DNA of 28,139 nt from a virus. Lineage: Duplodnaviria > Heunggongvirae > Uroviricota > Caudoviricetes. This document shows, one piece after another, positions 1 through 28,139 of the stretch. The stretch lies in the IMG/VR virus record IMGVR_UViG_2744054909_000001; one strand, written 5' to 3'. Position 1 is the first letter of the stretch; every line of letters begins with the position of its first letter. The translations under genes and the position numbers were made by a program. A model generated the notes under the pieces. That model saw nothing but the letters and a program-made list of their open reading frames with translations, searched no databases and was not told where the DNA came from.

Positions 1-127
<127 letters not shown>

Positions 128-18179: not shown

Positions 18180-18512
18180 TATAAGTAATGGACGCACTCC
18201 CAATTAGTCTATTTAAATCGCCACGAGTTTAACTGACAACCCATGATCAATTATGAATTGCAACTATTTCTGTAGTCACTTTTGTGGGGACAGTCCACAA
18301 AACTGCCAACTTCCGCTTCTTGCTCTTAGCGGACATTAGCATAGGCTATTTACCATAACGCCTCATTACGCGCACCGCCCAGACTGACTCAGCGCGTTTC
18401 TGGCATATCCCCGGTAAAACAAGTAACAAACCACCCGAAAATGAACACCAGAAACGCGACTTAAGAATCTACCCTATGAATGGATATGCACTCAACCGAA
18501 TCGATCTTGGTT

Positions 18513-19826
18513 TCAATCTTTTTTATCGGGATCAGGCTTCTTTTTAGATAACTTCGGGGGCTTAACTTGCTGATGACTTTGCGTTCGGCGCGTAAGCCAG
18601 GGATGGTCAGCTTTAGGTTTAACATAGTATTTTGAGCGTAAATCAATACGGGCATTATCCACTCGTTCATGGACACTCTTTTCATCATCCAGTGGTATAG
18701 GCTCCGGGCCATCAACATACTTTTCCCAGCCCAGCGCTTTCCCGTCATACAGAACGTTAATTTCACCGTCAAAGTTCTCGCATACAGTAACAACCGAATG
18801 CCTAAGTCGATATCCCCGGCCCTCACTGCGTACCTGAAACGCACTGCTTTTGTACTGGAAAGTGAGATTTTTAGACAGAACGCGCTTCGCCTGTAGGCTG
18901 AAGATATAACCCAGTTCCTCTTCAGAATGGTGCACATCAAGATGAGCATTATCAGTAGTACGAGGCGACGTAGCGAACCGGTTGTTATAGGCTTCAATAA
19001 AGGTCGGCAACCATGCATTTGCTGTTTCAATATCACTGATATTCTGAAGCCGCATTTCTTTGACCAGCCTGTCCTGTAGTGTCTGATTGGCGCGCTCTAC
19101 CCGCCCTTTTGCCTGCGGGCTGTTGGCATGGATTGGCTCGATGCCCAGTGTCTTTATCGCACGAGTGAACTGGGTCAGCTCACCTTCCCGCTCTGGGTTA
19201 TTTACCCTGAATATACTGTGTCTATCAGAGTAGAGAGCGAGCGGTACGCCATGATCATTAAGGTAACCCCGGAGGGTTTCCATGTAAGCCCGGGTTGTTT
19301 CAGCAGGCACAAAACGCAACGCCATCAACGCACTGGTGGCATCATCAATGAAAACGATCAGTGTACATCTGGGGCCTCGATTTTCAAACCAGTCATGAGG
19401 TGAGCCATCAATCTGGATCAGTTCACCGTAAGATGGTCGTCGCATGCGGCGTTGATATATACGGGCAATTTTACGACGGCGTTCACGCCATAACCCCTCT
19501 TCTATCATCCACTTTCTGAGAGTTTCAACGGATAAAGATAAACCGTGTATCTCGCGCAATTTTTCGCACGCAAACGTAGGTCCAAAATCAGCGTAACGGC
19601 CTTTGAGGAGTGAAATTACTGTTGCTCTGAATTCAGCAGAAAAGGAATTATTAGGACGCTTTCCACGTCGGTGGGAAACCAGACCAGAAGGCCCTTCATT
19701 TCTATACCGTTGCACCAGACGTTTAACCTGCCGAATAGAAATGCCAATGCGTGCCGCAGCTTGTTCCTGAATAATCTGAAGTCGGTGGAGTTCCTTATGA
19801 CTCATCGTAACAGTCTCTTTGATCAT
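18513..19826 (-). CDS. DDE transposase with N-terminal HTH and rve (integrase-core) domain, 437 aa
   Basis: Catalytic region ..IQIDGSPHDWF.. / ..LYSDRHSIF.. / ..SPQAKGRVERANQTLQDRL.. is the D-D-E (retroviral-integrase-like) signature; size and architecture suggest IS481 or ISNCY family. GGGGGA ribosome-binding site before the first ATG. Confidence 0.8.
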   Translation of the reverse strand: MIKETVTMSHKELHRLQIIQEQAAARIGISIRQVKRLVQRYRNEGPSGLVSHRRGKRPNNSFSAEFRATVISLLKGRYADFGPTFACEKLREIHGLSLSVETLRKWMIEEGLWRERRRKIARIYQRRMRRPSYGELIQIDGSPHDWFENRGPRCTLIVFIDDATSALMALRFVPAETTRAYMETLRGYLNDHGVPLALYSDRHSIFRVNNPEREGELTQFTRAIKTLGIEPIHANSPQAKGRVERANQTLQDRLVKEMRLQNISDIETANAWLPTFIEAYNNRFATSPRTTDNAHLDVHHSEEELGYIFSLQAKRVLSKNLTFQYKSSAFQVRSEGRGYRLRHSVVTVCENFDGEINVLYDGKALGWEKYVDGPEPIPLDDEKSVHERVDNARIDLRSKYYVKPKADHPWLTRRTQSHQQVKPPKLSKKKPDPDKKD

Positions 19827-26125: not shown

Positions 26126-26217
26126 AACAGTTCCGTAATAAATATCCGGTTTCATTCTTATATGCCAGCAATGGCAGGGATTTGTTCATCCTTAAATCTG
26201 TCATGAGGTTAAAACAA

Positions 26218-28029
26218 ATGAGTAAAGTCTTTATTTGCGCCGCTATTCCTGACGAACTGGCAACAAGGGAAGAAGGCGCTGTGGCTGTAGCCACAGCCAT
26301 TGAAGCTGGCGACGAACGCCGTGCTCGAGCAAAATTTCACTGGCAATTCCTGGAACATTATCCGGCTGCTCAGGACTGCGCTTATAAATTTATTGTCTGC
26401 GAGGATAAACCTGGCATACCCCGCCCTGCCCTCGATTCATGGGATGCTGAATATATGCAGGAAAACCGCTGGGATGAGGAGTCTGCTTCTTTTGTCCCGG
26501 TTGAGACTGAATCCGATCCGATGAACGTCACTTTTGACAAGCTGGCCCCTGAAGTACAGAACGCTGTCATGGTTAAGTTCGACACATGTGAAAACATCAC
26601 CGTTGATATGGTTATTAGCGCACAGGAATTGTTGCAGGAAGACATGGCAACATTCGACGGACATATCGTTGAAGCGTTGATGAAAATGCCAGAAGTTAAC
26701 GCCATGTATCCGGAGCTTAAGTTGCACGCCATTGGGTGGGTTAAGCATAAATGTATTCCTGGTGCTAAATGGCCCGAAATTCAGGCAGAGATGCGCATCT
26801 GGAAAAAACGTCGCGAAGGTGAACGCAAGGAAACCGGAAAATACACGTCTGTTGTTGATCTCGCCCGCGCCAGAGCCAATCAACAGTACACTGAAAATTC
26901 AACAGGAAAAATCAGCCCGGTCATTGCTGCCATTCATCGCGAATACAAGCAGACATGGAAAACACTGGATGACGAACTGGCCTACGCTCTCTGGCCTAGT
27001 GATGTGGATGCCGGAAACATTGACGGCAGCATCCATCGCTGGGCAAAAAAAGAAGTTATCGACAACGACCGCGAAGACTGGAAGCGTATCTCGGCATCAA
27101 TGCGCAAACAGCCTGATGCCCTTCGCTACGACCGCCAAACTATTTTTGGCCTTGTCCGTGAGCGTCCGATCGACATTCACAAAGATCCCGTAGCACTGAA
27201 CAAATATATCTGCGAATACCTGACGACAAAGGGCGTGTTTGAGAATGAAGAAACAGACCTGGGCACTGTTGATGTTCTCCAGTCATCAGAAACACAAACT
27301 GATGCAGTGGAAACTGAGGTATCTGATATCCCAAAAAATGAAACCGCGCCGGAAGCTGAACCATCTGTAGAGCGTGAGGGGCCGTTCTATTTCCTCTTCG
27401 CAGATAAGGACGGAGAAAAATACGGTCGCGCAAACAAACTCTCTGGTCTGGATAAGGCACTGGCTGCTGGCGCCACTGAAATCACAAAAGAAGAATATTT
27501 TGCCCGAAAAAATGGCACATACACGGGCTTACCGCAAAATGTAGATACCGCTGAAGATTCAGAACAACCAGAGCCGATAAAAGTTACCGCTGACGAAGTA
27601 AACAAAATTATGCAGGCAGCCAATATCAGCCAGCCTGACGCCGATAAGTTGCTTGCTGCATCACGTGGTGAATTTGTTGAAGGGATTAGTGACCCGAATG
27701 ATCCGAAATGGGTTAAGGGGCTCCAGACCCGCGATTCTGTGAACCAGAACCAGCATGAATCGGAACGGAACTACCAAAAAGCGGAACAAAACAGTCCAAA
27801 TGCGTTACAAAACGAGCCAGAAACGAAACAGCCTGAACCAGTAGCGCAACAGGAAGTGGAAAAAGTCTGCACCGCCTGCGGTCAGACCGGCGGCGGCAAC
27901 TGCCCTGATTGTGGCGCGGTGATGGGCGACGCAACATACCAAGAAACATTCGATGAAGAGTATCAGGTTGAAGTTCAGGAAGATGATCCGGAGGAAATGG
28001 AAGGCGCTGAACTGATCCTACCCACGTAA
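26218..28029 (+). CDS. ydfE: YdfE-like large acidic protein with C-terminal zinc ribbon, 3' end disrupted by IS3 (603 aa as read)
   Basis: ORF 26182-28029; start assigned to the Met preceded by GAGG. Highly acidic, with CTACGQTGGGNCPDCGAVMGD near the C-terminus. The last 17 nt and the stop codon lie inside the IS3 terminal repeat, so the native C-terminus is missing. Confidence 0.7.
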   Translation: MSKVFICAAIPDELATREEGAVAVATAIEAGDERRARAKFHWQFLEHYPAAQDCAYKFIVCEDKPGIPRPALDSWDAEYMQENRWDEESASFVPVETESDPMNVTFDKLAPEVQNAVMVKFDTCENITVDMVISAQELLQEDMATFDGHIVEALMKMPEVNAMYPELKLHAIGWVKHKCIPGAKWPEIQAEMRIWKKRREGERKETGKYTSVVDLARARANQQYTENSTGKISPVIAAIHREYKQTWKTLDDELAYALWPSDVDAGNIDGSIHRWAKKEVIDNDREDWKRISASMRKQPDALRYDRQTIFGLVRERPIDIHKDPVALNKYICEYLTTKGVFENEETDLGTVDVLQSSETQTDAVETEVSDIPKNETAPEAEPSVEREGPFYFLFADKDGEKYGRANKLSGLDKALAAGATEITKEEYFARKNGTYTGLPQNVDTAEDSEQPEPIKVTADEVNKIMQAANISQPDADKLLAASRGEFVEGISDPNDPKWVKGLQTRDSVNQNQHESERNYQKAEQNSPNALQNEPETKQPEPVAQQEVEKVCTACGQTGGGNCPDCGAVMGDATYQETFDEEYQVEVQEDDPEEMEGAELILPT

Positions 28030-28139
28030 TATGGACACAGGCCTAAGCGAGGTTCTTGTTTTCAAATTGTTCCGGACTGAGGCCGCCACACCAACTGTGC
28101 CGCCGCCACCGATTGTAATCACATTCGATATAATTAAAT
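28013..28139 (-). mobile_element. IS3 insertion sequence, right-end inverted repeat and 3' part (continues beyond window)
   Basis: TGATCCTACCCACGTAATATGGACACAGGCCTAAGCGAGG.. matches the IS3 terminal inverted repeat as I recall it. Confidence 0.8.
28043..28139 (-). CDS. insF: IS3 transposase OrfB (InsF) C-terminal fragment, partial
   Basis: Minus-strand hand translation ..[31 protein letters not shown] then stop (28043-28045) equals the IS3 InsF C-terminus. Confidence 0.8.

Follow-up and report, generated by a model that had tools for sequence, protein, structure and literature searches.

A single IS3 insertion very probably splits the exonuclease gene of a Qin-type lambdoid cryptic prophage, and the flanking part of the prophage most probably still lies beyond the element. 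Over positions 128-28012 the window (the whole stretch of DNA that was analyzed, 28,139 nt) aligns collinearly with the Qin-type lambdoid prophage of E. coli ATCC 8739, at 99.65% overall and 99.9% over 3200-28012, and its host would be an E. coli closely related to that strain. The genes are arranged in the order dicA-ydfA-ydfB-ydfC-dicB-ydfD-exonuclease; in strains 042 and ATCC 8739, where the orthologues are intact (823 and 825 aa, respectively), xis, int and rspB are next downstream. A reading of the window from its letters alone (hereafter the sequence-only reading) had called the interrupted gene ydfE-like, and this identity is borne out: the first 766 nt are identical to ydfE of K-12 and the dicB-ydfD-ydfE synteny is the same. 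A literature search on ydfE, Qin and exonuclease found no paper. The features at the right end of the window are collected in Table 1.

Table 1. Features at the right end of the window (positions are those of the window).
Feature	Position	Strand	Basis
Truncated prophage exonuclease gene (long form of ydfE)	26218..28029	+	ORF list; start as in the annotated CDS of strain 042 and ATCC 8739
AAC, left copy of the 3-bp target-site duplication	28010..28012		Comparison of window GCTGAAC/TGATCC, far junction and intact gene
Final 127 nt of IS3, right-end side; element inverted, transposase on the minus strand	28013..28139	-	126/127 to the IS3 of strain 1409 (L009)
IS3 right terminal inverted repeat, ~39 bp, imperfect; begins 5'-TG and holds the TAA of the exonuclease ORF	28013..28051	-	Alignment of left and right repeats of the full IS3 copy
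IS3-derived TAA stop of the truncated ORF	28027..28029	+	Sequence and ORF list
3' end of IS3 transposase orfB: last 31 codons and stop (28045-28043)	28043..28139	-	Translation; CDS end annotated in L009; PF13333 rve_2 match

The near junction, at which the gene gives way to IS3, is placed to the nucleotide. When window 26182-28139 was compared by megablast with 5,426 complete E. coli genomes, positions 26182-28012 (query bases 1-1831) were 100% identical to many intact genes annotated as 'exonuclease', and collinearity was lost exactly at 28012. After GCTGAAC the intact gene of E. coli 042 and ATCC 8739 reads ATCCACAC, also given as ATCCACACAAGG; after the same GCTGAAC the window reads TGATCCTACCC, that is TGATCC..., and continues from 28013 on as TGATCCTACCCACGTAATATGGACACAGGCCTAAGCGAGG. 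This portion is the right end of IS3 in inverted orientation: 126 of its 127 positions agree with an IS3 copy of 1258 bp, the sole mismatch being the last base of the window. The reference copy (strain 1409, L009 7073-8330, annotated as 'IS3-like element IS3 family transposase') lies in another context, a prophage integrase gene, and starts with the same TGATCC; its left and right repeats were aligned, and its annotation includes a programmed frameshift. A nearly perfect IS3 match over 127 nt is far beyond chance, and the point at which the window departs from the intact gene, 28012/28013, sets the IS3 boundary independently. The sequence-only reading had placed the start of the terminal repeat at 28013 and had proposed alignment to an IS3 reference as a check; that alignment puts the repeat at this position and not elsewhere.

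The frame listed among the open reading frames runs from a TTG at 26182 to 28029, and the ATG used in the annotated orthologues, at 26218, gives a gene of 603 codons. Across the junction it reads ...GGC GCT GAA CTG ATC CTA CCC ACG TAA, with GAA starting at 28009 and the C of CTG at 28012. The product therefore consists of 598 native codons, a chimeric Leu codon (599) and I-L-P-T from IS3. It had been claimed that the last five codons and the stop are IS-derived, which holds for the stop and for the four codons I-L-P-T but not for codon 599, in which C belongs to the gene and TG to IS3. The stop does sit within the terminal repeat, as had been read from the sequence, because insertion of IS3 in inverted orientation makes the frame of the gene read into the right terminal repeat. 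On the other strand, the stub of orfB in the window matches PF13333 (rve_2) among the precomputed hits.

The loss of the native C-terminus, also part of the sequence-only reading, is confirmed for the translated product: 225 aa are gone, including one complete domain. In the intact ATCC 8739 orthologue a Pfam scan places the Rv2179c-like 3'-5' exoribonuclease (DEDD) domain, PF16473, at residues 644-815 (E = 2.4e-67), wholly downstream of the break at residue 598, and the ORF in the window is without it; ATGATCGACCTTGAAACCATGGG is a stretch within this domain. Uninterrupted orthologues run 225 codons past the break. At E <= 0.01 the intact 825-aa protein has only PF16473 and a sub-threshold match to PF00929 (RNase_T). 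A RecE / exodeoxyribonuclease VIII identity, the label of some sources for the C-terminal fragment, was considered and is not borne out, as Pfam finds no RecE-type nuclease domain in the intact protein. For the 603-aa product the precomputed hits list YdfE_N (PF27430) and YdfE_C (PF27432); our own hmmscan with a local Pfam copy, which probably does not include those newer models, returned no family. A CxxC...CxxC motif, CTACGQTGGGNCPDCG, is located at window 27865-27920, just upstream of the break. This region has no Pfam match, and it may be a zinc-ribbon linker that connects the exonuclease domain to the YdfE-type N-terminal region.

If a single IS3 had inserted here, its other end should be found next to the missing part of the gene. 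An IS3 copy and an AAC duplication were placed in the ATCC 8739 gene to model a simple insertion, and the ORF crossing the far junction was then predicted: its start is a TTG located 16 nt into the left end of IS3, and it encodes MLGKIK followed by native residues 599-823, 231 aa in total. Exactly this fusion protein is on record (P0122; NCBI HCN5461797.1 and HDH7546314.1). Two contigs carry the far junction (L011 and L012) and read ...GGGTAAGATCA/AAC/ATCCACAC..., with a clean 3-bp AAC duplication. On the IS3 side they end GATCA before AAC, the longer readings being GCTGGGTAAGATCA/AAC/ATCCACAC and CACTATTGCTGGGTAAGATCA/AAC/ATCCACACAAGGAG; in the intact gene, which reads GCTGAACATCCACAC across the site, AAC occurs once. 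A 3-bp target duplication at the other IS3 end, which the sequence-only reading had proposed to look for outside the window, is thus present: one AAC occupies 28010-28012, and a second follows the left end of IS3 in both L011 and L012, the two junctions coming from different assemblies. Upstream of the far junction the IS3 sequence of L012 is unbroken over 972 nt and departs from the reference copy at one position; the window has 127 nt of the element. Downstream, both contigs run on into the remaining 675 nt of the exonuclease gene and then into xis (excisionase) and int (integrase), and the 104-kb contig continues through rspB, rspA, ynfA, ynfB and speG. Compared with ATCC 8739, the downstream DNA has 4 differences in 6003 positions in one contig and 2 in 2243 in the other, and the prophage end of both is that of ATCC 8739 and strain 042.

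The positions of the near and far junctions are complementary and are joined by the target duplication, for which reason the two would be expected to lie next to each other in the genome of the window itself. No contig or complete genome in the collections examined contains both, and the samples listed for the near junction do not include the far-junction assemblies. The near junction has no match in the 5,426 complete E. coli genomes or, in exact-pattern scans, in the GTDB representatives, the IMG/VR viral contigs or the JGI metagenomes; the predicted far junction was likewise absent from the last three collections in scans of the same kind, and a synthetic far-junction query gave only two-piece matches in the complete E. 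coli genomes, with IS3 at another site. When the lost 225 aa were used as a homology query, 1,436 proteins were retrieved, and the best 120 of the 1,436 were mostly contig-end partials; clustering at 90% identity masked the far-side fusion protein in this search. Ten predicted edge-of-contig versions of that protein, with prefixes from EFTHLAACPLLLGKIK... to LLLGKIK..., were absent from the protein collection. The internal-start fragment MIDLETMGKN... (P0121) occurs on long contigs with other kinds of disruption, none of which has the 28012/28013 junction.

The window holds only 127 nt of IS3 and nothing beyond. Its left end likewise carries exactly 127 nt that are not prophage, namely the 3' end of another IS3-family transposase, located in the head-tail joining gene. 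In this left stub (window 1-127) the transposase is in frame 3 and is ISEc31-like according to the annotation of the best matches; collinearity with ATCC 8739 starts at 128. Two repeat stubs of 127 nt are what a k-mer assembler leaves, so that the window is a whole draft contig bounded by repeats, which stops 127 nt into IS3 because the contig broke there. The stub on the left also implies that the prophage has at least two IS insertions that ATCC 8739 does not have. The same pattern recurs in other assemblies. The 603-aa product recurs without any change in 20 public draft contigs from independent samples, among them NCBI GCA_004170465.1, GCA_014857705.1 and GCA_017735795.1 and a dozen Logan runs, produced by different assemblers. 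In 15 of the 20, which are all that were inspected, the contig ends inside IS3, as the record coordinates put the gene no more than ~125 nt from the contig end; in six contigs examined at the sequence level, the DNA beyond the junction amounts to only 15-123 nt. Short-read assemblers are unable to cross a multicopy repeat, and the window most probably ends abruptly owing to an assembly break of this kind and not to the end of the prophage.

These observations bear on two other accounts of the junction. According to the sequence-only reading, it is transposition, and not an attachment site, that caps the prophage. If IS3 were the end-point of a deletion or rearrangement, the prophage would truly end there, and the 3' part of the exonuclease gene, xis, int and the attachment site would be gone or moved. 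K-12 offers a precedent at this locus: there ydfE runs into an IS2E remnant of 706 bp, and the remainder of the gene has been lost along with xis and part of intQ; the window itself has no sequence past its 127 nt of IS3, and no assembly was found with both junctions together. However, an exactly complementary junction with a perfect AAC duplication leads into an intact 3' part of the exonuclease gene, xis, int, rspB and rspA, and a target duplication flanking the same nucleotide is the mark of a simple insertion, not of an IS-mediated deletion. The stubs of equal length at the two ends already explain the abrupt end of the window. A capped prophage is unsupported and a deletion end-point improbable; that IS3 copies of the source strain recombined at a later time is about as improbable. 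That the near junction is itself an assembly artefact, in which a prophage contig was mis-joined to an IS3 k-mer path while the gene is intact in the real genome, would fit its place at a contig end, where mis-joins are commonest. This is scarcely credible when 20 contigs, obtained from independent samples with different assemblers, share an identical junction and the same 603-aa product, and when the complementary far junction with its target duplication was recovered independently.

A simple insertion would then proceed as follows. IS3 family elements move by copy-out-paste-in transposition through a circular intermediate and generate a 3-bp target duplication. One 1258-bp IS3 would have transposed into codon 598/599 of the 823-825-aa exonuclease gene, in inverted orientation relative to the gene, and duplicated the target triplet AAC. 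Translation runs from the gene into the right terminal repeat of IS3, adds L-I-L-P-T and stops at the TAA 15-17 nt inside the repeat. The N-terminal 598 residues, with the YdfE_N and YdfE_C regions and the CxxC...CxxC motif, are parted from the C-terminal DEDD-type Rv2179c-like 3'-5' exonuclease domain, leaving a two-piece pseudogene. Directly beyond IS3 most probably follow the 3' part of the exonuclease gene, xis, int and the junction on the rspB side. In the source strain the IS3 left end would adjoin AAC-ATCCACACAAGG / AACATCCACACAAGG, and GGGTAAGATCAAACATCCACAC is the sequence expected in the near-junction assemblies if both junctions share one genome.

The split gene is presumably non-functional. 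A functional split, in which signals of IS3 express the orphan exonuclease domain as a separate 231-aa protein from the TTG in the left terminal repeat, is suggested by a frame that is open from 46 nt inside IS3 into the domain and that has a TTG start; the ORF keeps a complete PF16473 domain (E = 2.1e-68) and is annotated as a protein by NCBI in two assemblies. Against this, no sigma-70-like promoter emerged from a scan of the far junction and its vicinity, the sequence upstream of the TTG, GCGTGTCCACTA, contains no Shine-Dalgarno-like sequence, and in other strains the gene is broken in many unrelated ways, which fits decay. Promoter and terminator scans gave nothing at either junction. The idea that the far-side ORF is expressed is weak, and that the split is functional seems highly improbable. 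Disruption of the gene is recurrent and independent, by IS2 in K-12, by IS3 at two or more sites, by other IS3-family elements and by internal deletions. It is also very unlikely, if slightly less so, that this recurrence reflects selection against an active exonuclease in domesticated Qin-type prophages, or that the split by IS3 leaves the 3'-5' exonuclease domain active and expressed on its own, each of which would be a departure from neutral decay. Under the preferred reading, a simple insertion, the case is an ordinary IS-made pseudogene, an instance of the usual decay of cryptic prophages and of biology that is already known. The appropriate annotation of the locus is a pseudogene of the Qin-type prophage exonuclease interrupted by IS3, and neither a shorter native gene nor a prophage boundary. 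Beyond correct annotation the significance is small, apart from a rule for draft contigs: where a contig ends in an IS stub, as the window does on both sides with exactly 127 nt, the assembly broke, and the stub is silent on where the prophage ends.

The same gene and a neighboring one have been hit by IS elements elsewhere. Among the 5,426 complete E. coli genomes none has the 28012/28013 junction. In strains AH04, AH02, CT01, CX12 and CX08 an IS3 lies ~490 bp further downstream in the gene, and in VG888-46E9 (L002 6300-7600) another IS3-family element follows nt 1263 of it; both are independent sites. Other copies of the gene have an IS just upstream of the MIDLETMGKN start, internal deletions or fusions to unrelated N-termini (L024, L029; P0086, P0081, P0082). 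In strain 1409 it is the neighboring integrase gene that carries the IS3. That copy (L009 7033-8370) is without a clean 3-bp duplication: it stands between ...CGCAATC on the left and AACTAAAAAAATT on the right, against ATCTGGAAAAATT in the intact gene, with three substitutions adjoining the IS3 left end. Elsewhere in the window, at ~18490-19800 (equivalent to L003 2296-3609, minus strand), is a 437-aa ORF for a transposase of the ISNCY family. Sister contigs of the window have it called as intact; its equivalent in ATCC 8739 is annotated as a partial pseudogene.

A full IS3 is ~1258 bp long and contains orfA and orfB, which are joined by a -1 programmed frameshift to give a DDE (rve) transposase. 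IS3 of E. coli, in the IS3 group, has 5'-TG...CA-3' termini, imperfect repeats of ~39 bp and a 3-bp duplication, as does the insertion analyzed here, and there is no mechanistic difference between the two. The closest parallel to the interrupted gene is the ydfE pseudogene of K-12 (b1577) in the cryptic prophage Qin, which is the same gene at the same locus (dicB-ydfD-ydfE ... intQ-rspB). It is a chimera of 255 native codons and 51 codons from the IS2E remnant (L013 5079-6549; MG1655 1650078-1651548), so that here, as in the window, the ORF tail and the stop codon are supplied by an IS element. By sequence comparison, ydfE of K-12 is itself an IS-truncated stump of the long exonuclease gene. 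The two cases differ in the site and in the element, the break being at codon 255 with a remnant of IS2 in K-12 and at codon 599 with IS3 in the window. They also differ in outcome: in K-12 ydfE is linked through the IS2E remnant to a truncated intQ, so that the remainder of the gene is truly deleted along with xis and part of int, whereas in the window the evidence points to a simple insertion with target duplication, in which the flanking DNA was kept.
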